Shown one piece after another: positions 8,441-52,667 of a stretch of DNA of 64,000 nucleotides. Each line of letters starts with the position of its first letter. Within the stretch, counting starts at the first letter, position 1. Below the pieces are notes generated by a model. That model worked only from the letters and a program-made list of their open reading frames with translations, did not search any database and had not been told where the DNA came from. The position numbers and the translations under genes were made by a program. The stretch comes from Candidatus Solibacter sp. (GTDB taxonomy: Bacteria; Chloroflexota; Dormibacteria; DASZGP01), in assembly GCA_035569605.1 (NCBI GenBank), contig DATMMS010000005.1:355262-419261 (forward strand). The letters run 5' to 3'.

Positions 8441-9745
8441 ATGCCCGGCCTCGACGAGTTTGTATTCGCGCCCGACCAGGAGCCCGAGCGGGTCTATCTG
8501 ATGGGACTGGGCCTTCCCGGCGTGTCGGGCACCAAGCTCGAGGAGCAGATGGCAGAGCTGGCGGAGCTCGCGGTGACCGCCGGCGCCGAAGTGGTGGGCT
8601 CCGACGTTCAGCACCTTGAGCGAGCCAACCCGACCACGATCTTCGGCAAGGGCAAGGTCGACGAGCTCAAGAGTCTCAAAGGCGACCTCGACTTCACCAC
8701 CGTTATAACCAACGACGAGCTGGCGCCGCGGCAGCAGCGCAACCTCGAGGACGCGATGAATATGAAGGTCCTGGATCGCACCGAGCTGATCCTCGACATC
8801 TTCGCCCGCCACGCCCGATCCCACGAGGGTCGGCTCCAGGTCGAGGCGGCGCAACTGCGCCACCTGCTGCCGCGACTGGCGGGCGGCCGAAACCTCTCCA
8901 GGCTCGGCGGCGGCATCGGTACCCGCGGTCCCGGCGAGCAGAAGCTTGAGGTCGATCGCCGCCGGATCCGCCATCGCATCAGCCAGCTCAAGGCGGAGAT
9001 CGCCAAGCTGGAGAAATCCCGCGGCCTGCACCGCCAGGCGAGACGGCGCGCCGAGGTGCCGGTGGTGGCCGTTGTGGGGTACACCAACTCCGGGAAGAGC
9101 ACGCTGATGAACGCCCTCACCGGGGCCGGCGTGCTGGAGGCCGACCAGCTATTTGCCACCCTCGACCCGACCACGCGCGCGGTTGAGCTGCCGGACGGGC
9201 GTCGAGTGCTGCTGACCGACACCGTCGGGTTCATCCAGAAACTCCCCACCGACCTGGTCGCGGCTTTTCGCGCCACCCTCGAGGAGGTCACCGAGGCCGA
9301 CCTGATCCTGCACGTGCTGGACGCCAGCCACCCCGCGATGCGAGATCACTTCGACGCCACCAACGATGTGCTCGATGACCTCGAAGCGATGGACAAGCCG
9401 CTCGTCCTGGCCTTCAACAAGTGCGACCTGCTGGACGCGGGGACAGTTGCCATGATCCGGCGCCGGGGAGACTGGTCGCCCTATGAGGAGGTGGTGCCGA
9501 TCTCCGCTCGTACCGGCCTCGGGCTTCCCGGGCTGCTGGAGGCCATCGAGCGCCAGACGCGATTGAACCTGGTCGAGCTCGATCTGCTGGTGCCCTATGA
9601 CCACGCGGGCGTGGAGTCAGAGCTGCGCCAGCATGGACGCGTGCTGAAGCTGGACTACGTGGAGGACGGGATCCGGATCGCGGCGGAGGTGCCGGGCAAC
9701 CTGGCGCCGCGGTTCGCCGAATTCGCTAAAACCCCCGCGGGTTGA
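8441..9745 (+). CDS. hflX: GTPase HflX
   Basis: HflX N-domain (LQVEAAQLRHLLPRLAGG...GPGEQKLEVDRRRI) followed by G-domain GYTNSGKSTLMNALTG / DTVGF. Confidence 0.9.
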   Translation: MPGLDEFVFAPDQEPERVYLMGLGLPGVSGTKLEEQMAELAELAVTAGAEVVGSDVQHLERANPTTIFGKGKVDELKSLKGDLDFTTVITNDELAPRQQRNLEDAMNMKVLDRTELILDIFARHARSHEGRLQVEAAQLRHLLPRLAGGRNLSRLGGGIGTRGPGEQKLEVDRRRIRHRISQLKAEIAKLEKSRGLHRQARRRAEVPVVAVVGYTNSGKSTLMNALTGAGVLEADQLFATLDPTTRAVELPDGRRVLLTDTVGFIQKLPTDLVAAFRATLEEVTEADLILHVLDASHPAMRDHFDATNDVLDDLEAMDKPLVLAFNKCDLLDAGTVAMIRRRGDWSPYEEVVPISARTGLGLPGLLEAIERQTRLNLVELDLLVPYDHAGVESELRQHGRVLKLDYVEDGIRIAAEVPGNLAPRFAEFAKTPAG

Positions 9746-10370
9746 CGCGAAGGACCCCGACCACAACGCCTTCGACCGTGAGGTCGGGCACCCGGATCGA
9801 CTGGTAGGCGGGGTTGGCCGGCTCCAGGCGATAGCCGGAGGGCTCGCGGTAGAGGCGCTTGACTGTGGCTTCCGACTCGCCCGTCTCGGGATGCTCCAGC
9901 CGGGCAACCACGACGGCGCCGTTCTTGGCCTCGTGCCCGGGCCGGACGGCCACCAGGTCGCCGTCCATGATGCCTTCGTCGATCATGCTGTCGCCACGCA
10001 CCCGGAGCAGGAAGGAGTCCTCGCCGAACAGCCCACTGGCGACTTCGACGCGATCCTCTACGTTGCTCTCGGCCAGGATCGGCGTACCGGCCGCCACCTG
10101 GCCGATGATCGGCAGGCTGACGATGTTGTTGGCCTGGGTGGTCGCCAGAGGGTCCTTCTCGACCAGCTCGATGGCTCGCGACTTGGACGGGTCACGGTGG
10201 ATGTAGCCCTTGCGCTCGAGGGTGTTGAGGTGGTTCTGGACCGTGGAGCTCGAACTCAGGCCGATAGCCAGCCCGATCTCTCGCACGGTCGGCGGATAAG
10301 CCTTCTCCCGGAGCATCTTCCTGAGGTAGTCCAGGATCTCGCGCTGTCGGTGGGTAAGGACCTCTGGCAT
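9726..10370 (-). CDS. lexA: SOS repressor LexA
   Basis: N-terminal wHTH (LTHRQREILDYLRK...PTVREIGLAIGL) plus S24 peptidase domain (VRGDSMIDEGIMDGDLVAV...KRLY); ATG at 10370; the ORF-track start at 10631 is an unsupported extension; 3' end overlaps hflX convergently by 20 bp. Confidence 0.9.
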   Translation of the reverse strand: MPEVLTHRQREILDYLRKMLREKAYPPTVREIGLAIGLSSSSTVQNHLNTLERKGYIHRDPSKSRAIELVEKDPLATTQANNIVSLPIIGQVAAGTPILAESNVEDRVEVASGLFGEDSFLLRVRGDSMIDEGIMDGDLVAVRPGHEAKNGAVVVARLEHPETGESEATVKRLYREPSGYRLEPANPAYQSIRVPDLTVEGVVVGVLRVNPRGF

Positions 10371-10437
10371 GACGTTCCTCCGCGTTGGCGCAGCGCCGGA
10401 GTGGACGCAGGATGCGCTGGTGGCGGTGCCAACAGTA

Positions 10438-10471
10438 GCACAAATGTTTGCCCAGCGCAAACGCATGTTCG
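10438..10471. promoter_or_regulatory. Candidate LexA operator(s) upstream of lexA, between lexA and divergent ferredoxin gene
   Basis: CAAACGCATGTTCG at 10458-10471 (CGAACATGCGTTTG on lexA sense strand; 13/14 match to CGAAC-N4-GTTCG); weaker palindrome-like GCACAAATGTTTGC at 10438-10451. Confidence 0.45.
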
Positions 10472-10606
10472 TGGTGCCTGAGAGGCCCCTTTTGGGGCGC
10501 TTTTGGGCGCCTGACGGGGCCGTCACGTTGGCGGCGCGGCGTTGATAGAATTGCAACTGCTTTTGACTAGGCCCCCGGCGGGGCAACTTTTGGGAGACCG
10601 TCGCCG

Positions 10607-10864
10607 ATGACCTACGTAATCGCCGAGCCATGCATCGGCACCAAGGACAAGTCCTGCGTCGATGTCTGCCCGGTGGACTGCATCCACGGCGCCGACGAGG
10701 ACCCCCAGCTCTACATCAACCCCGAGGAGTGCATCGACTGCGGAGCGTGCGAGCCCGCCTGCCCGGTGACCGCCATCTTCGTGGACTACGACGTTCCCGA
10801 GCAGTGGAAGGCCTACACCGAGCTGAACGCCGACTACTTCAAGACCGGCCGGACCGCACTCTAA
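10607..10864 (+). CDS. 7Fe ferredoxin (3Fe-4S/4Fe-4S)
   Basis: 85 aa; MTYVIAEPC...CVDVCPVDCI...CIDCGACEPACPV cysteine clusters typical of FdxA/FdxC-type ferredoxins. Confidence 0.9.
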   Translation: MTYVIAEPCIGTKDKSCVDVCPVDCIHGADEDPQLYINPEECIDCGACEPACPVTAIFVDYDVPEQWKAYTELNADYFKTGRTAL

Positions 10865-10945: not shown

Positions 10946-12361
10946 GTGAGCGACCAGCCCACGAGAATGGAACGGGACTCGATGGGCGAGCTCCCGGTCC
11001 CGGCGGACGCGTACTACGGCGCCCAGACACAGCGTGCGGTCCTCAATTTCCCCATCGGCGGTCTCACCATGCCCCCAGGAATGATCAGGGCTCACGCCCG
11101 GATCAAGGCTGCCGCCGCGAAAGTCAACCACGACCTTGGGCTGCTCGACGGCAAGATCGCGGATGCGATAGTCGCGGCCGCCACGGAGGTCGCCGAGGGC
11201 AAGTTCGACGACCAGTTCCCGATCAACGTCTATCAGACGGGGTCGGGTACTTCGACCAACATGAACCTGAACGAGGTCATCGGCAACCGGGCGACTGAGA
11301 TCCTGGGCGGCGATCGGGGCAGCAAGCTGGTGCACCCCAACGACCACGTCAACATGGGGCAATCCAGCAACGACATCATCCCCACGGCGATCCATATCGC
11401 CGCGCTGATGGCGATCGAGACCGAGCTGATCCCGGCGCTGGAGCACCTCCAGGTCGAGCTGGAGAAGAAGTCGAAGCAGTTCTGGGGCACCATCAAGACC
11501 GGCCGCACCCACCTGCAGGACGCCACCCCGATCCGGCTGGGGCAGGAGTTCCTGGGCTGGGCCGGCCAGATGGAACGCGGCGTCGCCCGGATGCGCCGGG
11601 CGCAGGACGAGCTGCGCGAGGTGGCCCTGGGCGGCACCGCGGTGGGCACCGGGGTGAACACTCACCCGGAGTTCGCGCGGCGGGTCTGCGAGCTGCTCTC
11701 CAGGGACCTGGGGGTGACCATCAGCGAGACCACCAACCATTTCCAGGCCCAGTCCAGCCTCGATAACGTGGTCGCCGCCAGCGGCGCTCTGAGAACCGTC
11801 GCCGTGAGCCTCTACAAGATCGCCAACGACATCCGCTGGCTCGGCTCGGGACCGCGGGCGGGGATCGGCGAGCTGGCGCTGCCGGCGGTCCAGCCTGGCA
11901 GTTCGATCATGCCCGGCAAGGTCAACCCGGTGATCGCGGAGTCGGTGACCATGGTAGTCGCCCAGGTTGTCGGCAACGACGCGACGGTCGCCTTCGCCGG
12001 CGCCGCGGGATCGATCTTCGAGCTCAACCTGATGATGCCGGTGGCGGGACACAACCTGCTCAGCTCGATTCACCTGCTGGCGGCGGCGGCGCGGAACTTC
12101 GCCGACCAGTGTGTCACCGGCATCGAGGACACCGGGCATGGGCCCGAGATGGTGGAGCGAGGCCTGATGCTGGCAACCGCGCTGGCGCCGGCGATCGGCT
12201 ACGACACAGCGGCGGACCTGGCCAAGACCGCCTTCAAGGAAGGCAAGACGATCAGGGAGGTCGCCCGCGAGAAGACGGACCTGACTGAGGCACAGCTGGA
12301 CCATCTGCTCGACCCGGCGGCGATGACCGAGCCCGGGGCCAGCGCCGGAGGCGGCGGCTAG
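10946..12361 (+). CDS. fumC: Class II fumarate hydratase-like lyase (fumarase/aspartase family)
   Basis: 471 aa; GAQTQRAVLNF, GSGTSTNMN, TGRTHLQDATPIRLGQEF, GSSIMPGKVNPV signature blocks; FumC versus aspartate ammonia-lyase not fully resolvable without alignment. Confidence 0.65.
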   Translation: MSDQPTRMERDSMGELPVPADAYYGAQTQRAVLNFPIGGLTMPPGMIRAHARIKAAAAKVNHDLGLLDGKIADAIVAAATEVAEGKFDDQFPINVYQTGSGTSTNMNLNEVIGNRATEILGGDRGSKLVHPNDHVNMGQSSNDIIPTAIHIAALMAIETELIPALEHLQVELEKKSKQFWGTIKTGRTHLQDATPIRLGQEFLGWAGQMERGVARMRRAQDELREVALGGTAVGTGVNTHPEFARRVCELLSRDLGVTISETTNHFQAQSSLDNVVAASGALRTVAVSLYKIANDIRWLGSGPRAGIGELALPAVQPGSSIMPGKVNPVIAESVTMVVAQVVGNDATVAFAGAAGSIFELNLMMPVAGHNLLSSIHLLAAAARNFADQCVTGIEDTGHGPEMVERGLMLATALAPAIGYDTAADLAKTAFKEGKTIREVAREKTDLTEAQLDHLLDPAAMTEPGASAGGGG

Positions 12362-12370
12362 AGCGTACTC

Positions 12371-12414
12371 TTGACACGAACGGCTGTTCGTGCATAATAG
12401 CGAACATGAGTTCG
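12371..12414 (+). promoter_or_regulatory. Sigma70-like promoter with two Cheo-type LexA boxes
   Basis: TTGACA 12371-12376, 16-bp spacer, CATAAT 12393-12398; CGAACGGCTGTTCG 12377-12390 fills the spacer; CGAACATGAGTTCG 12401-12414 overlaps the ATG at 12406. Confidence 0.55.
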
Positions 12415-12738
12415 TATGCCGATGTTCACTCTGGCGTCCGCCGTTCGCGCTACTACGCGCCGCCGGTGCCTCGTCGCAAGGCAGCCCGCATCAAGATCGG
12501 CCGGATCCTGGTGGTCCTCGGCATACTCATGATCGTCTTCATGAAGGCAGCCTATGGGGGAGGGCGGACGGGGACGGAATCCATCACCGTGCAGCCCGGC
12601 GAAACGGTTTGGAGCATCGCCGCCATCCGCTACCCGGACGACGACACCCGCAGCAGGGTGGCGGAAATCGTCGAGCTCAACCATCTCGGCAGCGCGCCAA
12701 TCTACTCCGGCGAGCGGCTGAGCATCCCGGCTCAGTAG
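12406..12738 (+). CDS. Small single-pass membrane protein with C-terminal LysM domain (YneA/ChiZ-like architecture)
   Basis: 110 aa; basic N-terminus, TM helix RILVVLGILMIVFM, LysM block ITVQPGETVWSIAA...SGERLSIP. Confidence 0.8.
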   Translation: MSSYADVHSGVRRSRYYAPPVPRRKAARIKIGRILVVLGILMIVFMKAAYGGGRTGTESITVQPGETVWSIAAIRYPDDDTRSRVAEIVELNHLGSAPIYSGERLSIPAQ

Positions 12739-16420: not shown

Positions 16421-18138
16421 GCCTGCTCTCGGTGAAAGACGTCAGCCTCTCCTTCGGTGGGGTGCGCGCGCTCGACTCGGTGTCGTTGGAGCTGAACCAG
16501 GGAGAGATCCTGGGCCTGATCGGCCCCAACGGTGCCGGCAAGACCACGCTCTTCAACTGCATCTCCGGTGTGCTGCGCCCGGATCACGGCCAGATTCGAT
16601 TCGAGGATCAGCCGATCCTGCGGCTCAAGCCCCACGAGCGTGCCCAGCGGGGGATAGCCCGGACCTTCCAGGACCTCCAGGTCTGGCACTCCATGACAGT
16701 CCTCGAGAACTGCCAGCTTCCCTTCGACGCGCTCTCCGGGCGGAGCACGATCGCCGACGCTCTGCGGCTGCCGTGGGCCAACCAGGTCGAGCGGGAATCG
16801 ATCGAGCGAGCCCGCGCGGTGCTCCACTCCCTCGATCTGCTCGAGCACAGCGAGCGCCTCGCCGGCGACCTGCCCGTCGGTCTCCAACGCCGAGTCGAGA
16901 TCGCGCGGGCCCTGGCGATGAAACCCAAGCTGATCCTGCTCGACGAGCCGGCTTCGGGCCTCGACGCGGACGAGACCAACGCGCTGGCCGCAGCGCTGAA
17001 CCGGATCCGCGACAAGTTCAACGTCTCGATGCTGCTGGTCGATCACGACATGAGCCTGGTGATGCGCGCCTGCGACTACCTCTACGTCTTGGACTTCGGG
17101 GAGCTGATCTCGACCGGCCGGCCGGAGCGCGTCCGCGAGGATCCCCGCGTCATCGAGGCCTACCTGGGAGCGGCCGCCGAAGCCACGACCGAGGCCGAGA
17201 CGGTGAAAGCCAGGCCGAAGAAGAAGCTCGAGGTGCTGCCGCCGGTGTCGCCTCAGCCATTGCTCGAGGTCAAGGACATGTCGGCGGGGTACGGCGGCAT
17301 CGAGGTGATCCGCGGCATCAGCCTGACCGTCGGGCGCGGCGAAATCGTGGCCTGCATCGGCGCCAACGGCGCGGGCAAGACCACCACGCTGCGGGCCATC
17401 TCCGGGATCCTTCGCACCAACCGCGGCAAGGTGACGTTTGACGGCAAAGACATCACCAGGAAGGCCCCCGAGGCGATCGTCCGGCTGGGCATGGTTCATA
17501 TCCCGCAGGGGAGGGGGTTGTTCCCTCAACTGACGGTTGCCGAGACCCTTCGGCTGGCCTCGTACAGCGGCGCCGCCAGCGTCGACCTGACGCCGGCCCT
17601 GGACGCATTCCCGATGCTGAAGACCCGGCTCAACCAGGCCGTCGGCACGCTCTCGGGTGGGCAGCAGCAGATGGTGGCTCTGGCGCGAGCGCTGCTGGTT
17701 CAGCCCAAGCTGCTGTTCCTCGACGAGATGTCCCAGGGGCTGGCGCCGGCCGTCGTGCAACAGCTGTTCGAGCGGATCGAGCTCTTCCGCAAGAGCGGCA
17801 CCTCGGTCTTCCTGGTCGAACAATTCGTGGACTCGGCGCTGGCGATAGCGGACCGCGCCTACGTCTTCGAACAGGGTTCGGTGGCCGTGGAAGGCCCGGC
17901 GTCCGTGATGCGTCGCGACCGTGATGTGATCGCAGGCGCTTACCTGGGGACGGCGGTCGCGATGGCCGAGGTGAGCAGCAACGGCAACGGACACCACGCC
18001 TCGGCGTTGCTGGCCGACCTGTCGATCAAGCTGCCGGCCGAGTTGAAGCGTGCGGTCCAGGAGCGGGCCGCGAGCGAAGGCAAAGATCCCGGAGAGATGA
18101 TTGCGGAGTTGCTAGCCGCAGGAGGGCGAGCGAAATGA
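16417..18138 (+). CDS. Fused tandem ABC ATPase (LivG-like + LivF-like domains) with about 50-aa C-terminal extension
   Basis: Two Walker A motifs ([12 protein letters not shown]; [14 protein letters not shown]), two signature/Walker B sets; ATG 16417 gives ATGA overlap with livM; tail after the usual ...AYLG end. Confidence 0.85.
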
Positions 18139-19544
18139 CCAGGCCTCGGTTGCGCACGTCGAAGACAGTCGCGTTCGGTATTTTTGTCGCGTTCACAGGC
18201 CTGCTGCTGCTGGCCGCCACTGTAATGGCCGAGGTGCCCGCAACCGTCGACTCCTACGGCGGCAACGCCTTTGCCTCGGGTGTCCACGTCATCGTCGGCA
18301 GCAACAACGACCCCAACTTCTCCAACGGCGCGATCGGAAACCGGTATCCGCTGGCCCAGGCGGGGCAGGACATCTCGCCGGCATCGTCAGCGACAGCGAG
18401 CGTCGACGACTACGGGCCGTTGGTGTCGACCGTCCTCGGCAATGACTGCAACGCGCCGCCGCCGAGCCCTCTGCCGGCACCGTCGCCGCAGCCCAGTCCG
18501 AACTACTGCCTGGAACAGATCCGCAGGGACGTCCCGTACGCCCGGGCCCAGTTCCCCAACCCGCCCGGTGTGGCGGATCAGACGGTCAACGGTCCGAGCG
18601 ACCCCAGCCTGCCCCCGCTGCCAAGCACGGGCACGGCAAGCGCTCACGCCCGGGAGCTCCGGGCCTTCGCCGATGGCGTCTACACGGGATCGCCGGACGG
18701 AGCCACGTTCACCAACGCCACGGCCCACAGCGAGACCGGCGTCGCCAGTGATGGAACCATCACCGTCCGGACCCATTCCCACATCGGCTCCGCGTGTTTC
18801 GGCAGCTGCGGAGTGTCCAACTGGCTCCAGGTCACCAACACCGACGTGCAGACCATCGTCACCGCCGTCAACGGCAAGCCCGTGCCGCAGGCCGTGGTGG
18901 CGCCAGGACAGGTGCAGTTCTGTTCCGCGCCGGGGAACTGCCAGTCGGTGCAACTCTCAAACAACGGCGTCACCGTCGGAGGAATCGCCCCCCCGACGCC
19001 GCCTCCACCGGTCCCCGGTATTCCCACGTCGGTGCCGGTCCCAGGTACGGGAGCCAGCGGCGAGACCCCATTCTTCAAGGTCCGCACCATCAACCCGATC
19101 AAGTCCGTCAACGGCTCCACCGGGTCCATCGATGCTCTGGGCCTCGACGTCGAGGTCATGCAGCCGGGCAACTCGGGCTCCGGTATTCCCGACTCCCAGG
19201 TCGAGTTCATCCTCGGTGAGGGCCACGCCGACGGCTTCTCGCTGGCCTCGCTCGGTCTTGAGTCCGGCGGCGTCACCGACCTAACCGGCGGTGGCGACAC
19301 CGGCTCGCTGCTGGGGAGCATCGTGGGGGATAACCCAGGCGGCAGCGCCGCCGGCGTCACGCTGCCCGCGATCAAGCACACCGTCATCCGCCCCGGCGGA
19401 TTGGCTCTGGCGGGAGCTCTGCGGCCTCCGTTCATACCCTGGTTCTACGCCTGGGAAGCCTCCGCCTTCGCGGCCGCCGCTTCGATGGTCTGGGCCCGAA
19501 GGAGCCGTCTGAGAGACATTGCCGAGGAGGCGCTGGGCCAATGA
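18135..19544 (+). CDS. Hypothetical secreted/membrane-anchored protein, Pro-rich, Cys-containing
   Basis: 469 aa; N-terminal signal/anchor (VAFGIFVAFTGLLLLAA), C-terminal hydrophobic segment; ATGA overlap with ATPase stop; no family recognised. Confidence 0.6.
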   Translation: MTRPRLRTSKTVAFGIFVAFTGLLLLAATVMAEVPATVDSYGGNAFASGVHVIVGSNNDPNFSNGAIGNRYPLAQAGQDISPASSATASVDDYGPLVSTVLGNDCNAPPPSPLPAPSPQPSPNYCLEQIRRDVPYARAQFPNPPGVADQTVNGPSDPSLPPLPSTGTASAHARELRAFADGVYTGSPDGATFTNATAHSETGVASDGTITVRTHSHIGSACFGSCGVSNWLQVTNTDVQTIVTAVNGKPVPQAVVAPGQVQFCSAPGNCQSVQLSNNGVTVGGIAPPTPPPPVPGIPTSVPVPGTGASGETPFFKVRTINPIKSVNGSTGSIDALGLDVEVMQPGNSGSGIPDSQVEFILGEGHADGFSLASLGLESGGVTDLTGGGDTGSLLGSIVGDNPGGSAAGVTLPAIKHTVIRPGGLALAGALRPPFIPWFYAWEASAFAAAASMVWARRSRLRDIAEEALGQ

Positions 19545-20654: not shown

Positions 20655-21579
20655 CTATTTCGCCCGGCTGAAGTTCGCCGTGACCTTCGCGTCCAGCTGC
20701 GTTCCGAGGTCCTGGTACTGCTTTTGCAACGTGGCGTAGTCGAACTTCTCCAATGCGTCGATATCAATCTTGAGGGCCGCCTGGGCAGTCTCGATCGCGG
20801 ACAGATTCCGGTTCTGGACGCCGTCCACGACGCCCTTGATATGGGTCAGCTCCGACCTGAAAACGGCCAGGAACTCCTTCAGCTTGGACGGCGTGTCGGG
20901 CGCGGCCGTGGCTCCGGTGATCAGCTTGTCAAGGCTGGCGCTGGGAGCCGCATAGTCAGCCTCAGCGGTACTCACCTTTTGCGCGGTCAGGTCGGCGCTC
21001 AGAGTCTTGAGCTCGACCAGGGTGGTCATGAGATCGCTGATCAGGCCGATCTGCTGTTTGACCGATCCGATTACGCTTATCTCAGCGACAAGGCCATCGT
21101 GATAGGCGCCCAGCCGGCCATGCTCGCGATCCAGCATGCTCGCCGAGATGGCTGTGAACATTGATCGATCCTGTACCTTCCGGTCGGCCGTTGCGACGTC
21201 CCTGATCTCGGTTTCATCCGTGGACTTGAGCGAGTCGAGCTCCACGTTTGCCTGGTCCAGCGCCGTCTTCGCTCGGGCAGGGTCAAAGTTGGTCCCGCTA
21301 AGGTCACCCACGCCGCTGAAGACCGTGCGCAGCTTGGCTTCGAAGTCGACATGGCGCTGGTCGACGGTCGAGCGCACGGCGTTTGAGGCATCGATCCTGT
21401 CTTTGGCCGCGGCCCTGGAGGCGACGACATAACCCACCGCCACCCCGATCAAGACCACCACCGCCGCGACGACGATCAGGAGATTGCGCACGAGGTGGCC
21501 CGCTGCCGCTACGGGTGGCGGTGGCAGTGATTCCCATAATGCTGGCGTGGGCGTGGCCTGGACTGCTGGCTCGTCGATC
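20655..21579 (-). CDS. Hypothetical membrane-anchored protein with long helical ectodomain
   Basis: Start placed at ATG 21579 preceded by GAGAGGGGGA RBS-like purine run; N-terminal TM (LLIVVAAVVVLIGVAVGYVV); the ORF-track start 22112 is an Arg-rich extension overlapping the divergent gene. Confidence 0.6.
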
Positions 21580-21665
21580 ATTTCGTTGCGTTCCCCCTCT
21601 CGGTTACCCCGCAGTGGGGACCATGGTAGGCCACTTGTGCGCTGGCGTGCGCCTAACCTAGACGC

Positions 21666-22139
21666 ATGCGGGCGGTGAGTCTGCGGACGGCTGAGGTCCT
21701 GACCTGGATCGCGATCTGCCTGACCAGCTTCCTGGCGTTCCGGATCTTCGCGATCTACCTCACGCTGCTCAACCCGGCGACGTGCAACGACAGCTGTGAC
21801 CTGGGCCGCGACGCCATCCGCGTGTTCCTGGCGGTCTTCGTCGTCGGCTGGTTTCCCTGGCTGCTGATGCTCTGCATCTCCTACGCGCGGCGCCACGCCG
21901 AGCTGTGGTGGCTGCCGCACTGCGTGGTGATCGTCGGCGCCTATATCTTCGCCATGGCGTATGTGGCGGTCCTGTTCATGGGCTTCAGCGACGCCAATGG
22001 CCGCACGCCGTTCCTGGCGCTCTCGGCCGCCGCTAGCCTCGGGTTGGCCGGCCTGGTGCTGATCGCCGGCGTCGTGCTCGATCGCCATGTCCCCCCGGAC
22101 ACCACCGTCCACTTCTTCCAGGAGGACTCCGGAGAGTAG
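21666..22139 (+). CDS. Hypothetical membrane protein
   Basis: 157 aa, 4 predicted TM helices; divergent from previous gene. Confidence 0.5.
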   Translation: MRAVSLRTAEVLTWIAICLTSFLAFRIFAIYLTLLNPATCNDSCDLGRDAIRVFLAVFVVGWFPWLLMLCISYARRHAELWWLPHCVVIVGAYIFAMAYVAVLFMGFSDANGRTPFLALSAAASLGLAGLVLIAGVVLDRHVPPDTTVHFFQEDSGE

Positions 22140-23604: not shown

Positions 23605-23985
23605 TCAGCCGCTTTTACGAATGCCGTTATAGATAGTCTTGCCGCCCACCAGCAGCAGGTAAACCGCGAACACCTGGCGCAGCCGCTGCTGGTCGATGTG
23701 CACCGCCAGATAGGCGCCGGCCGCGGCGGTGACTGCCCCCAGCAGACCCATCCAGATCGTGGGCTGGATGTCGATATTGCCGCGGCGATAGTGCGACTGC
23801 GCTCCACTCAGCGCGGTGGGCAGGATAACCAGCAGGGACGTGCCCTGGGCGACCGATTGCTGCACTCCCAGGACCAGCACCATCGCCGGAACCATGATCA
23901 CGCCGCCGCCGATCCCAAGCGCTCCGGAAAGCATTCCTGAGACCAAACCGATGACCAGGGTCAGCGCCCCCTCACCGACGTTCAT
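23605..23985 (-). CDS. TSUP (TauE/SafE, DUF81) family membrane protein, C-terminal-half-like unit
   Basis: 126 aa, 4 TM; GxGGG motif SGALGIGGGVIMVP; start ATG overlaps stop of upstream half (ATGA). Confidence 0.7.
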   Translation of the reverse strand: MNVGEGALTLVIGLVSGMLSGALGIGGGVIMVPAMVLVLGVQQSVAQGTSLLVILPTALSGAQSHYRRGNIDIQPTIWMGLLGAVTAAAGAYLAVHIDQQRLRQVFAVYLLLVGGKTIYNGIRKSG

Positions 23986-24389
23986 GGCAGCAGCAGCCTG
24001 GTCGCCACGACGACGAGCAGCACGCCGAAGGCCAGCGTCAGCTGGCGGTCCGAGACGCGGTGGGCGATGACGGCGCCAAGCCGTGCGCCGACAACCCCTC
24101 CGATCGCCAGCAGCAAAGCGAGCTCAAACCGCACATTGTGGCCGCCCGCCAAGTAGTACGTGGCCACACCCACGATCGAGATCGGGATGATGGCGAGCAG
24201 CGAATTGGCGACCGCCCGCCTCTGGTTGAGGCCCAGCGCCCAGGTCAAACCTGGCACCAGCACCACTCCCCCACCGACGCCCAACAGGCCGCTCACGAAG
24301 CCGGCCACAGTGCCGACGCCAAGGGCCCGAGCTAAGGGCTTACCAGTAGCGCCAGGCACGGTTTCCGGGAGAGGTTCCAAACATCTCAC
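23982..24389 (-). CDS. TSUP (TauE/SafE, DUF81) family membrane protein, N-terminal-half-like unit
   Basis: 135 aa ORF; SGLLGVGGGVVLVPGL motif; start probably downstream of 24389 because the ORF overlaps the spoIID-like 3' end by 50 bp. Confidence 0.65.
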   Translation of the reverse strand: MRCLEPLPETVPGATGKPLARALGVGTVAGFVSGLLGVGGGVVLVPGLTWALGLNQRRAVANSLLAIIPISIVGVATYYLAGGHNVRFELALLLAIGGVVGARLGAVIAHRVSDRQLTLAFGVLLVVVATRLLLP

Positions 24390-26226
24390 CGTAGACCACG
24401 AAGTCAGCCGGTGAGCCGGCGTTGATTGCCCGGATGAACGCGCCCGGGGTCACCGTGCAGACGCGGGACGAACCGACCATGCGCACGCTGTTGAGGCGAT
24501 CTGAGGCGTCGCGGTCGGAGAGGTCGAAGGATCTCAGGGTGCCACACTGCGCCGCGCTGTAGGTCCCGCCCAGGTAGCCCTGGATCTCGCTGAGCGTGTG
24601 CGCCGGCGTGTACCAGGTGTGGAGTGGGCTGACGTCGTAGTTGTCGACCACCCCGGCCAGGTAGGGTGTGTTGCTGCCGCCCCACTCGTCCACGGCGGAC
24701 TGGGTGTGGCCGCCGTCGCTGGACGAGAACACTGCATCGATGATCTGGCCGCCGTAGAAGACCCCCTGCAAATGCGTCGTGGCGATGGCGGCGTTCTGCG
24801 ACTGGGTCTCGCGGCCGACTCCGCCGTAGACCTGGGAGGCGGTGGTGTCGTCGACGTCATACAGCCCTCCGCCGAGGTGGTACAGGGCGTAGGTGCGAGC
24901 GGCCACCATCTGGGCGGCGAGCGCGTTGAGGGGCCAGCTGGAAGGCACCTCGGCGATGCCTTGGAGGTAGCTCTCGAGCTCGACGTGGTTGATCACCTTG
25001 AAGCCGCTGCTGCCGTCGACCCAGGCCTCGCCGCGGTACTCCCGTCCACTGCCGCTGACCTGGAAGTACAGGCCGGGCACCAGCCGCAGCGTCGAGCTGT
25101 GGGCGCTGCCGCCTGCCCAGCTGGCGCTGATGCTGCCGTCGCCGTTGCGCGAGAACGTGGCCGTCTGGTCCTGCGCCAGGTGGCCCAGGACGTTGCCGGA
25201 GACGTCCTGCACCGTCGCCGGAGCGGACCTCGGGGTGATGGCGCCGCCGGCGCCCGTCAGGTAGACGCGGACGGTTTGGTCTGGGACCGAGCCGATGCTC
25301 ACCCCGCTGTAGAAGCTGTGAATGATCTGCTGCCACCCGATACCCGCCTGGGCCATGCCCAGCGCGCCGTACTGGGCCAGGCCCACGCCGTGCCCCCAGC
25401 CGTGCCCGCAGAAGCTGATCTTGCCCGCCGGCGCGGCAGGGCACACCGAGCCGTAGGCCAGCCCCGATCCCTTCTGACCGGCGGCTGCCGCTGCCGCCGC
25501 GGCGGCGGCGAGCGCCTGCTCCAACTGCGTCTCGGCTCGCTGGGTGCCACGAAGCGCGGCCAGCTGAGCGCGCTGCTGGGCCTCGATTTGGGATTCGATC
25601 GCGGCCTGGTTCTGGACCTGTCCCGATGCTGCAGCGGCTCTTGCCGCGAGCTCGGCCAGGAGCGGGTCGAGCTCGGCCTTGAGCCGCGCGGTCTCGTCAC
25701 GGTCGCGACTCAGCGCGTCGCGCTCCTCACGTAACCGGACCGCCTGGTCGTAGTTGTCGCGGGTCACGTGGGCGATGTAGATGAGGCGGTCAAGGAAGTC
25801 CGAGAAGCTGTTGGCCTCGAACAGGAAGACGATGGCGTCCGCCGGACCGGTCTTGTAGAGGCTGCGGCTCTGGGTCCGGAAAAGGTTGATATGAGCGTCG
25901 TGCTGCCTCTGGATCTGCTGGCCCCGGGCGTCGAGAGCCGCGATCTGGCGGCTGAGCTGATCTGCTCGGGCGAGCTGACTCTGATAGTCCGCCTGCTTGG
26001 CATTGAAGTCGGCGCGGAGCTGGTCCAGCATCGCCTGAGCCGACTGCTGCTGGCCGGCCAGCTGGTTGAGCGCCGCCCTCTGGCTCTGCTCCTGCGCCTT
26101 GAGCGCAGCCAGCTGATCTGGGGTCGGGTCAGCCAGGGCCGAGGTCGCCGGCATCGCGCCCACCATCAGGCAGACGGACAAAAACGTAGGCAGAAATGTG
26201 CGAAGACGCATGGAGGCTGAACTCAT
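24340..26226 (-). CDS. SpoIID/LytB-domain protein with N-terminal signal peptide and coiled-coil region
   Basis: 628 aa; signal peptide, Gln/Ala-rich coiled coil, poly-Ala run, C-terminal SpoIID-like blocks (MVAARTYALY...VYGG...SSSDGGHTQS). Confidence 0.8.
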   Translation of the reverse strand: MSSASMRLRTFLPTFLSVCLMVGAMPATSALADPTPDQLAALKAQEQSQRAALNQLAGQQQSAQAMLDQLRADFNAKQADYQSQLARADQLSRQIAALDARGQQIQRQHDAHINLFRTQSRSLYKTGPADAIVFLFEANSFSDFLDRLIYIAHVTRDNYDQAVRLREERDALSRDRDETARLKAELDPLLAELAARAAAASGQVQNQAAIESQIEAQQRAQLAALRGTQRAETQLEQALAAAAAAAAAAGQKGSGLAYGSVCPAAPAGKISFCGHGWGHGVGLAQYGALGMAQAGIGWQQIIHSFYSGVSIGSVPDQTVRVYLTGAGGAITPRSAPATVQDVSGNVLGHLAQDQTATFSRNGDGSISASWAGGSAHSSTLRLVPGLYFQVSGSGREYRGEAWVDGSSGFKVINHVELESYLQGIAEVPSSWPLNALAAQMVAARTYALYHLGGGLYDVDDTTASQVYGGVGRETQSQNAAIATTHLQGVFYGGQIIDAVFSSSDGGHTQSAVDEWGGSNTPYLAGVVDNYDVSPLHTWYTPAHTLSEIQGYLGGTYSAAQCGTLRSFDLSDRDASDRLNSVRMVGSSRVCTVTPGAFIRAINAGSPADFVVYGEMFGTSPGNRAWRYW

Positions 26227-26269
26227 TCTTTAGGCCGCCACCGGCCCTGTCAACCTCGTTGGCGGAGAT

Positions 26270-27232
26270 TTAGCCTGCCTGCGAGAGCTCCTTAATCACG
26301 TTCACAACGCTCTCGGACAGTCCGTGGAGGTCATATCCCCCCTCCAGGCACCAGGCGCTCCGGCCGTCGCAGAGATCAGCGGCCCAGGCGGTGATGCGAG
26401 CCGCCAGGATGCCGTAATCAACGGATTCCAGCTCCATCTGGGCCAGCGGATCGCTTCGGTGGGCATCGAAGCCCGCGCTCACGAGAAGCAGTTGGGGAGC
26501 GTATTCGCGGAGCGCGGGCGCGAAGACCTGATCGAACACCTCGACGTATTCAGATCGCCCCCCGCCCGCAGTCATTGGCGCGTTGAGGGTGAACCCTTCG
26601 CCTTCACCCTGGCCGCGCTCTGACGCGGCACCGGTGCCGGGATAGAGCGGGTACTCGTGGCAGGACATGTAGAGCACGTCGGACCGCTCGTAGAAGATGT
26701 CCTGGGTGCCGTTGCCGTGATGGACGTCGAAGTCCACGATCGCCACCCGTTCCAGTCCAAAGTCAAGCGCCGCCTGGGCTGCGATCGCGATGTTGTTGAA
26801 AAGGCAGAAGCCCATCGCCTTCGACCTGGTGGCGTGGTGGCCCGGGGGCCTGGTGAGGCTGAAGGCGGAGCCTTGCTCGCCCGCCAGGACCGACTGGACC
26901 GCCGCCACCGCCCCGCCCGCGGACGCCACCGCGGCGGCGACAGAGTTCGGCCCCAGCCAGGTGTCAGGGTCTAGCCACTCGCCCGTGCCCCGGGCATCGG
27001 CCGAAGCGCCGGCGTCGAAGATGGCGGCCACGTGGTGCGGGTCGTGCACGGATTCGAGCATCTCCCGCGTCGCCGGCTCGGGCCGCCGCCTCGGCAGCTC
27101 GCGGAGATCGGGGTCAGCCGCCAGCGCCTCATCGATGGCAGCCAGTCGCTCGGGCCGCTCGGGATGACCGGGCGCCTGGTGGAGGTCGCAGTCCGGGTGG
27201 CTGAAGAGAAGCGGCGCCCGCCCCGGAGTCAT
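26270..27232 (-). CDS. Histone deacetylase-superfamily hydrolase (AcuC/acetylpolyamine amidohydrolase-like)
   Basis: FDVHHGNGTQ...MSCHEYPLYPGTG blocks; ATG 27232 overlaps stop of upstream gene (ATGA); ORF-track start 27355 is an extension. Confidence 0.8.
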   Translation of the reverse strand: MTPGRAPLLFSHPDCDLHQAPGHPERPERLAAIDEALAADPDLRELPRRRPEPATREMLESVHDPHHVAAIFDAGASADARGTGEWLDPDTWLGPNSVAAAVASAGGAVAAVQSVLAGEQGSAFSLTRPPGHHATRSKAMGFCLFNNIAIAAQAALDFGLERVAIVDFDVHHGNGTQDIFYERSDVLYMSCHEYPLYPGTGAASERGQGEGEGFTLNAPMTAGGGRSEYVEVFDQVFAPALREYAPQLLLVSAGFDAHRSDPLAQMELESVDYGILAARITAWAADLCDGRSAWCLEGGYDLHGLSESVVNVIKELSQAG

Positions 27233-28446
27233 GTCACGTCGAGGTCGAGGGCCAGCTCCCGCAGGAATGACTCCACATCGGTAACGATGCCTACGGTCTG
27301 GAAGGAACCGCGGTCCGACAGCTTGGTCACCACCGATGGCTCCATGTCGACACATACCGTACGGACCGTTGCCGGCAGCAGGTTGCCGGTGGCGATGCTA
27401 TGCAGCATCGTGCCGACCATCAGGGCCAGCCTGATGTCCCGCTGGCGGATGGCCTGGCGCATCCTCTTCTGAGCCACGATCACATCGGTGATGACGTCGG
27501 GCAGAGGCCCGTCGTCCCGGATCGAGCCGGCCAGGACGATCTCGATCCCCGCCTTGGTCGCCTCGAACATGACGCCGCTTTTGACGACACCGCTCTCCAC
27601 GGCGGCCGCGATCGACCCCGCTCGGCGGATCTCGTTGATGGCTCGGATGTGGTGCTCATGGCCGTGCTCCAGGCCCAGGCCCGAATCGAGGCTGATGCCC
27701 AGCGAGGTTCCGAACAGCGACGACTCGATGTCGTGGGCGGCCAGCGCGTTGCCGGCGAACAGCACCTGCACGTACCCAGCGCGGATCAGAGCTGACAGAT
27801 AGCGTCCGGCGCCGGTGTGGATGACTGCGGGTCCCCCGACAAAGAGGATGGAGCCGCCGTCGGCGCGGATCTGGCGCATGTCGGCGGCGATCTCCCTGAT
27901 CACCAGCTTCTTGGGCTTCTCGGCCGACACCTGCGACTGCATGAACCCGAAGATCTCGCGGTCTCGGGATCGCTCCAGCGGCTGCACCCTAATTCCGAGA
28001 TACCCGGTCACCACCATCTGGCCAACCCGGGCCTCGTCGACGGGGAGGCAGAACGCTCGCTCGCCGTCGACCGCGATGCCGCAGTCCATCTCGATGTTCT
28101 CGACCTCCAGCCAGCGTTCGCCGACGCGCACCGAGGTCGGCTGGTTGCTGGTCGAGTAAAACTCGCCTGGGAAGACCCCATCCTGCGTCACCGCCTGCAG
28201 CTGGGCGCCGACGTGGTCCAGGGGCGCGGCGCCGTACTGCTGGATGGCGGTGAGGATCTCGCCCAGCAGGGTCTCGTCGCTCGCTTCCACCGACAGCCTC
28301 ACGTAGGACTTCTCGTCCTTGTGCTTGCCGACCCGGAACTCCTCGACGTCGAAGTTTCCGCCCATGTCCATGATCGTGTCCCAGACCTTGGGCAGAGCCA
28401 GGCTGTCGATGATGTGGCCCTCGAGGGCCACCAATGCCCGTTCCAT
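27229..28446 (-). CDS. Conserved hypothetical protein, possibly LOR/SDH-like domain family (TIGR00300-like); assignment tentative
   Basis: 405 aa from ATG 28446; Rossmann-like Gly-rich segment LFVGGPAVIHTGAGRYLSALIRAG; family call from recalled pattern only. Confidence 0.5.
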   Translation of the reverse strand: MERALVALEGHIIDSLALPKVWDTIMDMGGNFDVEEFRVGKHKDEKSYVRLSVEASDETLLGEILTAIQQYGAAPLDHVGAQLQAVTQDGVFPGEFYSTSNQPTSVRVGERWLEVENIEMDCGIAVDGERAFCLPVDEARVGQMVVTGYLGIRVQPLERSRDREIFGFMQSQVSAEKPKKLVIREIAADMRQIRADGGSILFVGGPAVIHTGAGRYLSALIRAGYVQVLFAGNALAAHDIESSLFGTSLGISLDSGLGLEHGHEHHIRAINEIRRAGSIAAAVESGVVKSGVMFEATKAGIEIVLAGSIRDDGPLPDVITDVIVAQKRMRQAIRQRDIRLALMVGTMLHSIATGNLLPATVRTVCVDMEPSVVTKLSDRGSFQTVGIVTDVESFLRELALDLDVT

Positions 28447-35172: not shown

Positions 35173-36252
35173 CTAGCTTTCGCGGCGGAAACCGTAATCC
35201 AGCAGGCTTGCCGCGTCGGTGAAGATCAGCGGGTCGTCCATCTCCACCGTGACCAGGGTATGGCTGCCCCGATGGGCGCCGCCGACGAAGACCTGGCCGG
35301 CCTTGTCGGTGAGCCCGGTCTTGAAGCCGATGGCGCCAGGGTAGGTCCAGAGCAGCTTGTCGAGATTGGTCGGGAAGAAGGCCTTGTGGTCGGAGCTGTA
35401 AGCGAGCGTCTCCTCCTTGGTGGTGACCACGCCGGCAAGCACCGGATAGTGCTCATAGAGGTAGGCGGCAGTCAGCGCCAGGTCGTGGGCGCTGCTGTAC
35501 TGACCGGCGTCGTCCAGCCCCGAGGGATTGACGAATTGGGTGTCGGTCAGGCCCAGCGCGACGGCCTTGCTGTTCATGGCGCGGACAAAATCGGCCCGAC
35601 CGTGCCCGACCGTGGTGGCAGCAAGCGTCTCGGCCGCGTCGTTGCCCGAGTCCAGTAGCAGCCCGTAGAGGAGCTCGCGCACCGTCAGTGTTTCGCCGGC
35701 GCTGAGCCCCATGACATTGGGCTCCACGTTCACCGCTGTATCGGGCACCACCAGCCGGTCATCGGGGCTGGCGTGGTCAAGGGCTACCATCGCGGTCGTC
35801 AGCTTGGTGGTGCTGGCGATCGCCATCCGCTGGTGCGGGTTGCGGCTGAAGAGGACGTGGCGATTGTCGATATCGACCAGGATGGCGGCCTTGGCGCGGA
35901 CAGCCGGCGCGCCCGCCGCCGGGTTGGCCTGTGCCCAGCGGTAGTCCCAGGAGTACGGCGGCGAGAGCAGCGCCTGGGCCGCCTCGTGGCGGTCGCTGAC
36001 GGCATAGACCGGGACCGCCGGCTCGACCACGTGGGCGGCGGCGACGCTGGTGGCAGCGGTGGCAGCAGCTCGTCCGCCGATCGTGACGTGAGTTGCCATC
36101 CAGATCGCGCCAGCCAGGAGCGCCAGGGAGGCGAACAGCACCAGGACGTCCCGGCGCCGAGCGCCTTTCCGGCGCCGGGGACCGTAGGAGCGACTTGCTG
36201 GCGTGAATGTGACGCGTGCCGCGGATCTGCGCTGGTACAAGTCGGCCCCCAT
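35173..36252 (-). CDS. D-alanyl-D-alanine carboxypeptidase (serine-type, peptidase S11)
   Basis: Active-site SxxK in ASTTKLTTAMVALDH; N-terminal membrane anchor; ATG 36252. Confidence 0.8.
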   Translation of the reverse strand: MGADLYQRRSAARVTFTPASRSYGPRRRKGARRRDVLVLFASLALLAGAIWMATHVTIGGRAAATAATSVAAAHVVEPAVPVYAVSDRHEAAQALLSPPYSWDYRWAQANPAAGAPAVRAKAAILVDIDNRHVLFSRNPHQRMAIASTTKLTTAMVALDHASPDDRLVVPDTAVNVEPNVMGLSAGETLTVRELLYGLLLDSGNDAAETLAATTVGHGRADFVRAMNSKAVALGLTDTQFVNPSGLDDAGQYSSAHDLALTAAYLYEHYPVLAGVVTTKEETLAYSSDHKAFFPTNLDKLLWTYPGAIGFKTGLTDKAGQVFVGGAHRGSHTLVTVEMDDPLIFTDAASLLDYGFRRES

Positions 36253-36354
36253 GAAACCAGAGCCCCGTCGGGCTGTCAATCGCGCCCTCGGGCGCGCCGA
36301 CATTAGAGTAGCGGATGGGGTTTACTATGCTTCGACCATCGCTAGGAGGGAATC

Positions 36355-48681: not shown

Positions 48682-49740
48682 TTGGCGCCTGTGAGTCGCC
48701 TTTGGCGGCCGGGCTGCGGGATCGCCCTGGGCGCCGCTCCTTCCACTTCAGGAGGACAAATTCTGCGCTTTCGCATAGGGCTACTGGCTGTCGTGGCTGC
48801 GTTCTCCGTGCTGTCCACTACGACCGGCCTGGGAGCCACGGCTGACTCCCTCGCCGCCCTGGCGGCGCAGCGGCAGGCCCTGCAGGCCCAGGCGAACAGC
48901 GTCCTGGGGCAGCGTCAGACCACTTTGTCGCGGCTGCTGCAGACCAAGGACCTGCTGGCCACGCTTCGAGGGCAGCTCGATCAGAACGCCTCGAAACTGG
49001 CCGAGCTGCAGTCTCAGCAGGAGGACTTGAGAGCGGGAATCGAGGCCACCAGCGCCCACATGCAGACCGACCGCGACCTGCTCGCCGGAATCGTCCGCCA
49101 GCAGTACAAGACCCGAGGCGACAGCAAGCTGTCCCAGATCCTTTTCGATTCCTCGAACCTGAGCCAGATTGTCGATCGCATCGTCGCCACAGAGGCCATC
49201 AGCAGCCGTGCCCACGACCTGATTGTCGAGCTCCGGGTGGAGCAGTCGACCCTCAACAGCCAGTCCGCCGCGCTGGCCGCAAAGCAGGCCGAGGCCAACC
49301 GGCTCAGGGATCGCCTGACGGCGCAGAAAAAGCAGGTCCAGGCGGTCGCCGCCGACTACCAAACGCAGGTCGATTCGATGGACGCCAACGCCCAGGCGCT
49401 ACTGGCGCGAATCAAGGCAATCGACGCGGCAATCGCGGCCCTGACCTCGCCCCCTTCGGGGGGCCGCCAGTACACCCAGCAGCAGATCATCGCCATCATC
49501 AGGGGAGCGGCGGCCCAGTACGGCGCCAACGGCGACCAGATGGTGCGGGTCGCCCGCTGCGAGTCGAGCCTGAACCCGTACGCCTACAACCGGAGCTCTG
49601 GCGCTTCGGGTCTGTTCCAGTTCATGCCCGGCACCTTCTACGGCAACGGCGGGCACAACATCTGGGACCCCACCGACCAGTCGGATGTCGCCGCCAAGAT
49701 GTTCGCGCGGGGCGACTCCGGGGCCTGGAGCTGCAAGTAG
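48682..49740 (+). CDS. Secreted coiled-coil protein with C-terminal transglycosylase-like domain
   Basis: N-terminal anchor, long Gln/Ala-rich helical region, C-terminal GASGLFQFMPGTF block. Confidence 0.65.
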   Translation: MAPVSRLWRPGCGIALGAAPSTSGGQILRFRIGLLAVVAAFSVLSTTTGLGATADSLAALAAQRQALQAQANSVLGQRQTTLSRLLQTKDLLATLRGQLDQNASKLAELQSQQEDLRAGIEATSAHMQTDRDLLAGIVRQQYKTRGDSKLSQILFDSSNLSQIVDRIVATEAISSRAHDLIVELRVEQSTLNSQSAALAAKQAEANRLRDRLTAQKKQVQAVAADYQTQVDSMDANAQALLARIKAIDAAIAALTSPPSGGRQYTQQQIIAIIRGAAAQYGANGDQMVRVARCESSLNPYAYNRSSGASGLFQFMPGTFYGNGGHNIWDPTDQSDVAAKMFARGDSGAWSCK

Positions 49741-52550: not shown

Positions 52551-52667
52551 AGCGGAGAGCTGCGCGCGACGTGGTCCCTCATTGCGCCTTAAATGATGGA
52601 CGGTTTTTAGTGAGCTCTCAGCCGACCGATCGGCCCACCGCGGTAGCACCCAACGACGTACGATCGT

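Follow-up and report, generated by a model that had tools for sequence, protein, structure and literature searches.

The partner proteins of the FtsEX complex are described in a review of the system as LytM, CHAP or NlpC/P60 proteins that either cut peptides or activate amidases (PMC11627006). In the structures of FtsEX with EnvC and with RipC, the coiled-coil domain of the partner is gripped between the two extracellular domains of FtsX, and in RipC the segment that joins the helices at the tip rests against FtsX (PMC11627006). The subject of this study is a pair of genes, here called A and B, which lie in a 64,000-nucleotide stretch of contig DATMMS010000005.1 (GenBank assembly GCA_035569605.1, Candidatus Solibacter sp.); this whole stretch is referred to as the window. 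Each encodes a secreted protein with an N-terminal, antiparallel two-helix coiled coil of ~200 residues that is followed by a peptidoglycan-directed domain. By analogy with the FtsEX partners we lean, with modest confidence, toward the reading that A and B are secreted enzymes that cleave glycan strands, carried on hairpins homologous to those of EnvC, PcsB, RipC and RipA and gated through FtsEX. What appears to be new is the placement of glycan-cutting effector domains on a coiled coil of the FtsEX type, together with a permuted order of the SpoIID domain in A.

24340 to 26226, minus strand: gene A, secreted coiled-coil / permuted SpoIID-LytB protein (open reading frame, Pfam and NCBIfam matches, orthologue clusters and their N-termini)
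48682 to 49740, plus strand: gene B, secreted coiled-coil / Rpf-like SLT lytic transglycosylase (open reading frame, Pfam matches, orthologue clusters, DNA)

Both fusions are conserved across the lineage. Full-length orthologue clusters number ~100 for A and ~70 for B, nearly all of them from metagenome-assembled genomes (MAGs) named Candidatus Dormibacteria/Dormibacteraeota or "Chloroflexi bacterium", and because of these clusters A and B are genuine genes and not chance open reading frames (ORFs). The G+C fraction at third codon positions is of coding type in both (0.85-0.87), in a window of 67% GC.

The two proteins can be compared with PcsB from S. pneumoniae, CwlO from B. subtilis, and RipC and RipA from Mycobacterium and Corynebacterium. 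They share with these a signal peptide, a hairpin of ~200 residues, a linker and an intact C-terminal active site; the coiled coil is homologous and structurally similar, and the genes likewise stand alone, unlinked to ftsEX. Catalysis in the known proteins is the task of CHAP or NlpC/P60 domains, which are peptidases or amidases (PMC11627006), whereas A ends in a SpoIID-type and B in an Rpf/SLT-type domain, both glycan-cleaving types, and neither contains a CHAP, NlpC/P60 or LytM effector domain. The linker of RipC is long and Pro-rich (PMC11627006), in contrast to that of A, which is short (~15 residues) and flanked by a conserved Cys pair. In EnvC from E. coli, from P. aeruginosa and from V. 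cholerae the LytM domain is dead and serves to activate AmiA/AmiB (PMC11627006), whereas A and B keep their catalytic residues. Also unlike EnvC, no separate "restraining arm" helix is predicted in A or B, because the second helix of each model is continuous. Our literature searches found no description of a permuted SpoIID domain or of a SpoIID/coiled-coil fusion, and SpoIID, FtsX and coiled coil were found together only in a generic review.

Coiled coils and their relation to FtsEX partners

Both proteins begin with a signal peptide, and AlphaFold2 (AF2) predicts for each a single long antiparallel two-helix hairpin, with predicted local distance difference test (pLDDT) values mostly of 80-96. 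The helices span residues 35-125 and 141-252 in A, with a short connector helix at 127-136, and residues 54-147 and 160-255 in B, with a short connector at 150-156.

26131 to 26226, minus strand: signal peptide of A, residues 1-32, cleavage after ALA, MRLRTFLPTFLSVCLMVGAMPATSALA followed by DP (sequence; conserved in orthologues; low-pLDDT helix at 12-22)
25471 to 26124, minus strand: coiled-coil hairpin of A, residues 35-252, EnvC/PcsB type
25747 to 25887, minus strand: hairpin-tip motif of A, residues 114-160, containing LYKTGPADAIVFLFEANSFSDFLDR (the stretch that matches CC_PcsB; predicted FtsX docking site)
48763 to 48843, plus strand: signal peptide of B, residues 28-54, cleavage after ATA, RFRIGLLAVVAAFSVLSTTTGLGATA followed by DS (sequence; like pattern in orthologues P0124, P0133, P0135 and P0165)
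48841 to 49446, plus strand: coiled-coil hairpin of B, residues 54-255
49057 to 49257, plus strand: hairpin-tip motif of B, residues 126-192, containing QQYKTRGDSKLSQILFDSSNLSQIVDR (PF24568 match; invariant residues)

The A-family profile was compared with all sequences in the Protein Data Bank (PDB). After SpoIID, the five best matches were FtsEX partners, aligned along profile positions 5-242: EnvC 8hd0_E (E-value 7e-9), V. cholerae EnvC 8tzk_E (6.5e-7), PcsB 4cgk (8.8e-7), EnvC 6tpi (1.8e-6) and P. aeruginosa EnvC 8i6o_E (1.7e-4). The first unrelated coiled coil appeared at 5.6e-4. For the B-family profile the best coiled-coil matches in the PDB were PcsB (1.1e-3), the uncharacterised membrane protein 8qox_B (1.8e-3), the RipA-like Cg1735 (4.7e-3) and EnvC (7.7e-3). 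A profile search with the coiled coil of B only returned B orthologues again and no new catalytic partners. EnvC, PcsB, RipC and RipA are among the best coiled-coil matches of the predicted structures and family profiles, and the coiled coils of A and B are homologous to theirs. We took coiled-coil homology to mean matches either to the Pfam family CC_PcsB (PF24568) or by profile; for the two window proteins it is carried by the profiles, their Pfam scores falling short of the cut-off. At E<=1e-3, PF24568 is matched by 22 of the 54 A-family and 22 of the 51 B-family members, and precomputed Pfam annotations list it for several orthologues of both.

The hairpin tip is the most conserved part of the coiled coil in each family. 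It is also the sole stretch over which A and B resemble one another (BLASTP, 2e-5). Near-invariant residues in the tip of A are Y124 (52/54), G127 (49/54) and F141 (51/54), those invariant in B are R139, Y142 and F155, and the tip consensus can be written as YK-x-G/R ... LF-x-S/A-x-x-F/L-S ... DR. By analogy with the RipC complex, the tips of both hairpins would dock on FtsX.

Catalytic domains and the permuted SpoIID order

Protein A has the SpoIID fold. It matches PF08486 (SpoIID) with 65.5 bits against a cut-off of 23, as do all 54 members of its family, and TIGR02669 (SpoIID_LytB) with 165.3 bits against a cut-off of 83.3. The parts of the protein behind the coiled coil are as follows.

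25426 to 25470, minus strand: short linker of A, residues 253-267, with Cys262 (pLDDT low at 246-257)
25276 to 25425, minus strand: segment of A, residues 268-317, FCGHGWGHGVGLAQYGALGMA...FYSG, corresponding to the C-terminal end of canonical SpoIID (phmmer)
25012 to 25275, minus strand: all-beta region of A, residues 318-405, between the two SpoIID segments (AF2 strands, pLDDT 91-98)
24343 to 25011, minus strand: SpoIID core of A, residues 406-628, corresponding to the N-terminal two thirds of canonical SpoIID; ends without GHGVG
24949 to 24951, minus strand: codon of Glu426, predicted catalytic residue of A (aligned with C. difficile E101)

Glu426 stands opposite E101 of C. difficile SpoIID in the phmmer alignment (5txu numbering) and is conserved in 54 of 54 members. 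With the E101A exchange, C. difficile loses both SpoIID activity and sporulation (PMC6221140), and B. subtilis SpoIID likewise cannot do without the equivalent E88 (PMC6635528). The C. difficile protein also has a zinc site of Cys and His residues (PMC6221140). In the GHGVG segment G274, G276, H279, G280, G282 and Q285 are invariant. Cys262 in the linker and Cys273 just past it, each conserved in 48 of the 54 members, may form a disulfide. The substrate of the characterised SpoIID members is denuded glycan (PMC6635528, PMC6221140), and by analogy A is probably a SpoIID-type lytic transglycosylase or muramidase acting on strands stripped of peptides.

The SpoIID domain of A is circularly permuted. 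The FCGHGWGHGVGLAQYGALGMAQAG...FYSG segment is aligned by phmmer in such a way that residues 269-317 of A match 275-323 of 4rwr, and residues 268-311 match 307-350 of 5txu, while the core, residues 411-554, matches 62-221 of 4rwr, out of the canonical order. A lacks the canonical collinear order, in which the GHGVGMSQYG helix segment is C-terminal. The same two non-collinear stretches are obtained with the A-family profile, and both matches become collinear with SpoIID when residues 258-317 of A are shifted to the C-terminus. The old C-terminus (..YYxGT) of the permuted proteins passes straight into the old N-terminal strand (..VRVxL), and the new ends of the domain lie between the "..LGLxSTxF" strand and the strand before GHGVG. 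Compared with canonical SpoIID from B. subtilis, C. difficile and B. anthracis (4RWR, 5I1T, 5TXU) and with the homologue from Waddlia chondrophila, A starts the domain with the last ~50 residues of SpoIID, has no membrane anchor, and contains an extra beta region of ~90 residues in addition to the N-terminal coiled coil.

The permuted order was found in all 108 scorable matches of the orthologue search with A, and it extends to relatives without the coiled coil, in which the GHGVG segment comes right behind the signal peptide. When 1.84 billion cluster representatives were scanned with the SpoIID part of A, 11,849 relatives reached E<=1e-10. Among the best 150, the order is permuted in at least 90 and canonical in at least 27. 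Among the matches listed from species-representative genomes, a sample and not a census of taxa, at least 49 loci are permuted and belong to Dormibacterota, Actinomycetota (Gaiellales, Solirubrobacterales, Thermoleophilia and a Coriobacteriia MAG) and Chloroflexota, at least 22 are canonical and come mainly from Cyanobacteria, Firmicutes and Desulfobacterota, and the split between the two orders tracks taxonomy. Two proteins, P0106 (Propionicimonas sp., 789 residues) and P0266 (795 residues), are tandem duplicates of the permuted unit with GHGVG at ~52 and ~440, and the junction between the copies restores the canonical SpoIID order. This is the arrangement expected for a duplication-and-truncation route, of which the tandem proteins could be an intermediate or a replay.

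The fusion of coiled coil and permuted SpoIID was found solely in Dormibacterota-type MAGs, and in other Chloroflexota the permuted domain is joined to SH3 domains without a coiled coil. The coiled-coil-less permuted SpoIID/LytB proteins of Actinomycetota and Chloroflexota (for example P0108, P0113, L004-L049) have the same order as A, with 34-40% identity over residues ~262-620 of A, but they start with GHGVG after the signal peptide, with SH3 domains, or with a tandem copy (P0106). An N-terminal bacterial SH3 domain occurs in L010 and L042 (Chloroflexota / Limnocylindrales), L014 (Chloroflexia) and L041 (Anaerolineaceae), the last of which also has a CAP domain. The permuted proteins L009 and L037 have long N-terminal regions without a Pfam match.

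Protein B has a lysozyme-like fold in its C-terminal part.

49477 to 49737, plus strand: lysozyme-like lytic transglycosylase domain of B, residues 266-352
49561 to 49563, plus strand: codon of Glu294 (in RCES), predicted catalytic residue of B (invariance; MltC alignment)

B matches PF01464 (SLT) with 34.6 bits (cut-off 21.3), as do 51 of 51 B-family members, and PF06737 (Transglycosylas, Rpf-type) with 27.4 bits, just over the cut-off of 27; 49 of the 51 members match the latter. C293, E294, S295 and C351 are invariant in 51 sequences, and the ES pair is aligned with the ES motif of MltC. By analogy to RpfB, C293 and C351 may form a disulfide. Like RpfB and RpfC, B has a minimal lysozyme-like domain with a Cys-Glu-Ser motif and a C-terminal Cys, and in the structural alignment it is 31% identical to the catalytic domain of RpfB. 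By structure it is closest to Rpf domains, yet it scores higher on the SLT model than on the Rpf model. B is predicted to be a small Rpf/SLT-type lytic transglycosylase. In mycobacteria RipA and RpfB form a complex of separate polypeptides, whereas B fuses a coiled-coil module and an Rpf-type glycosidase in one chain.

The sequence-only reading had proposed for both proteins a layout of signal peptide, coiled coil and C-terminal peptidoglycan domain, and this is borne out by the ORFs, the signal peptides, the AF2 hairpins and the hidden Markov model (HMM) matches. It had let the proposal hang on the C-terminal domains; both pass the HMMs and keep their catalytic residues. It had also likened A and B to regulators of the PcsB/EnvC type. 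The likeness of the coiled coils proves to be homology by the profiles, but the two proteins resemble enzymes (PcsB/RipC type) and not catalytically dead regulators of the EnvC type, because their catalytic residues are intact. The circular permutation in A and the glycan-cleaving type of both effector domains went unremarked in that reading.

Gene starts and genomic surroundings

The ORF of A encodes 628 residues from the first ATG, or 623 residues if Met6 (26211) is the start. Met6 is probably the true start, because the orthologues begin at its equivalent (MR[LF]RT..) and a promoter-like site covers the first ATG. This site has 10 of 12 matches, and one such site was observed against 0.4 expected, which is weak evidence for a promoter of A. 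If it is real, translation of A would begin at Met6, and the leader of its mRNA would be just a few bases long.

26225 to 26253, minus strand: promoter-like TTGACA-17-AAGAAT, within the 43-nt gap behind the upstream deacetylase gene; overlaps the first ATG of A
48750 to 48756, plus strand: Shine-Dalgarno sequence AGGAGGA of B, followed by caa ATT CTG (DNA; perfect match)

For B the ORF gives 352 residues from TTG 48682, ~325 from CTG 48763 and 315 from the GTG at 48793 that is used by NCBI. No canonical start lies at the right spacing from AGGAGGA, and the GTG of the database, 37 nt downstream, cuts into the signal peptide. The start is probably CTG 48763, six bases past AGGAGGA. This codon fits best: a start at GTG 48793 strips the signal peptide of its charged N-terminal part, and one at TTG 48682 adds 26 residues. 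The SGG(Q/N) codons that bear the Shine-Dalgarno sequence are conserved among B orthologues with long N-termini, and many annotations of B orthologues are shortened at the N-terminus in the same way as that of B in the database.

The identical NCBI proteins (P0001/HXA42666.1 for one, P0121 for the other) are labelled "Candidatus Solibacter sp." (Acidobacteriota), and all close homologues and the syntenic contigs are from MAGs of the Dormibacterota/Chloroflexota type. Misnaming or mis-binning of the MAG that carries A and B is the probable cause.

The window is an ordinary chromosomal stretch. It encodes YmdB (48-605), SpoVS (609-878), MutS, MutL, HflX, LexA, FumC, a branched-chain amino-acid ATP-binding cassette system, a Xer-type recombinase, two half-size TauE proteins, a histone-deacetylase-family gene, an ArgZ-like gene, GpsA, Der, a D,D-carboxypeptidase, BipA, a cyclase-ATPase, a cold-shock protein, an aldehyde dehydrogenase and others. 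The neighbours of B differ between lineages. Directly upstream of A, on the same strand, a gene of the histone-deacetylase family (PF00850) is present in every lineage examined, including one of 40% identity whose neighbours are otherwise different.

26270 to 27355 of the window, minus strand: PF00850 gene upstream of A
8825 to 9784 of L001: PF00850 gene
8873 to 9856 of L002: PF00850 gene
8896 to 9816 of L003: PF00850 gene

On the other side of A are two half-size TauE/SafE genes of 126 and 135 residues (23605-23985 and 23982-24389, minus strand) with a 4-base overlap. Of the Pfam model, the upstream gene matches the C-terminal half, and the downstream gene the N-terminal half. A frameshifted TauE was considered and rejected, since the half-size genes are separate in L002 as well (11835-12607).

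The sequence-only reading had tied A and B to a candidate SOS division inhibitor and a D,D-carboxypeptidase. The D,D-carboxypeptidase (35173-36303) and LexA (9726-10631) do lie in the window, 9-14 kb from A, but they share no operon with it, and no genetic link of A or B to division genes was seen in the window or beside the orthologues examined. A division or SOS gene cluster was rejected: the genes are 9-14 kb apart amid housekeeping genes, and their conservation in L002 is that of whole-region synteny. The LexA ORF (minus strand) has an N-terminal extension of ~85 residues before the DNA-binding domain, and it overlaps a divergent 85-residue ORF (10607-10864, plus strand). A LysM protein of 110 residues (12406-12738, plus strand) follows fumC. 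One of these two, the 85-residue or the LysM ORF, was probably the candidate for the SOS division inhibitor, and neither is linked to A or B. Three large coding-type ORFs have no Pfam match at E<=1e-3: 18135-19544 (plus strand, 469 residues), 20655-22112 (minus strand, 485 residues) and 51567-53105 (minus strand, 512 residues).

Proposed control by FtsEX and its alternatives

The mechanism that we favor for A and B is modeled on the known FtsEX partners. It supposes that these genomes encode FtsEX and that the conserved hairpin tip docks between the extracellular domains of an FtsX dimer. Binding and hydrolysis of ATP by cytoplasmic FtsE would shift the hairpin, and this shift would free or position a catalytic domain otherwise held in an autoinhibited state, so that glycan cleavage would be confined to the places and times at which the division or elongation machinery is at work. 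A septal site of action is conceivable, and a precedent for a septal SpoIID outside sporulation is found in Waddlia (PMC6635528).

Several observations weigh against control by FtsEX. The predicted template modeling score is 0.51 for both AF2 models, so that the packing of the domains is uncertain. The profile matches of the B coiled coil are weak, at 1e-3 to 8e-3, and the CC_PcsB scores of A (22 bits) and B (16.5 bits) are both under the 27-bit cut-off. Coupling of FtsEX to a glycan-cleaving domain is without precedent among the reviewed partners (PMC11627006). Pfam scans of the window (~50 ORFs in 64 kb) detected no FtsE, FtsX, amidase or dcw gene, and neither ftsE nor ftsX was present within 10 kb of the A orthologues (P0087, P0027, L003) or B orthologues (P0182, P0185) examined. 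The literature searches found nothing that links Dormibacterota to FtsEX.

The lack of ftsEX linkage in any context examined, together with the low CC_PcsB scores, would suit an alternative in which A and B are the enzymes described but their coiled coil does not depend on FtsEX; it would serve as a stalk for autoinhibition or oligomerisation, or bind another membrane partner. A study on RipA reportedly found such a case in Corynebacteriales, where this coiled-coil hydrolase is said to be controlled by SteAB and not by FtsEX. We regard this alternative as rather unlikely, though likelier than the others below. The best sequence and structure matches of the A coiled coil are EnvC and PcsB, both of which depend on FtsEX, and the strong conservation of the tip motif in A and B argues for a common docking partner over mere oligomerisation. 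Little can be read into the missing linkage, since pcsB, cwlO, ripC and envC likewise stand apart from ftsEX in model organisms.

It is improbable that A is mainly a non-lytic stimulator of amidases, like EnvC or the SpoIID-like domain of LytB from B. subtilis. The SpoIID/LytB family, to which A belongs by TIGR02669, is tied to amidase enhancement, both by LytB and by SpoIID acting on SpoIIP. Some orthologues of A are named "peptidoglycan hydrolase-like amidase" by JGI, and EnvC provides the precedent of a coiled-coil protein that acts as an activator (PMC11627006). However, Glu426 and the GHGVG...Q residues are invariant across the 54 members, as expected of an active enzyme, and no amidase gene adjoins A in the window or in L001-L003. 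The two roles are in any case compatible, as SpoIID performs both.

That the coiled coils are simply Gln/Ala-rich, low-complexity helices whose likeness to PcsB and EnvC is compositional seems very improbable, since in the A profile search EnvC and PcsB lead the generic coiled coils by ~5 orders of magnitude, the match falls on a specific, non-repetitive tip motif with near-invariant Y, G and F, and CC_PcsB is the sole coiled-coil family matched by many A members (22 of 54, against no more than one for any other family). The idea that A is a sporulation SpoIID orthologue for endospore engulfment, prompted by the Pfam family name and by SpoVS and YmdB in the window, was rejected as scarcely credible, for A scores only 83 bits on the equivalog model TIGR02870 (spore_II_D; cut-off 234.75), it combines a signal peptide that is cleaved with a coiled coil and a domain in permuted order, in place of a membrane anchor and the canonical order, and the window showed no further genes for engulfment.

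Returning to control by FtsEX, a more specific and more doubtful proposal is that FtsEX of Dormibacterota directly gates the cleavage of glycan strands, and not of peptides, through paralogous coiled-coil fusions of the SpoIID type and the Rpf type. The permutation joins the end of the coiled coil, via the short Cys-flanked linker, directly to the invariant GHGVG...Q helix segment. If this segment lines the catalytic groove, a moving hairpin could act on the active site itself, opening or closing it. Were the proposal true, A and B would represent a new class of FtsEX effector and the permutation of a domain would have found a functional use. Apart from this, the permutation bears on structure-based annotation and on domain models, since only ~97 residues of the domain are covered by Pfam.

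How FtsEX controls the cutting of the wall is central to the division and growth of bacteria, and the mechanism has been well studied at the structural level. If our reading is correct, a phylum-wide pair of proteins with a docking handle on glycan cutters would widen what FtsEX controls, and it would show how the wall may be remodelled in Dormibacterota, an uncultured, slow-growing lineage of the soil.

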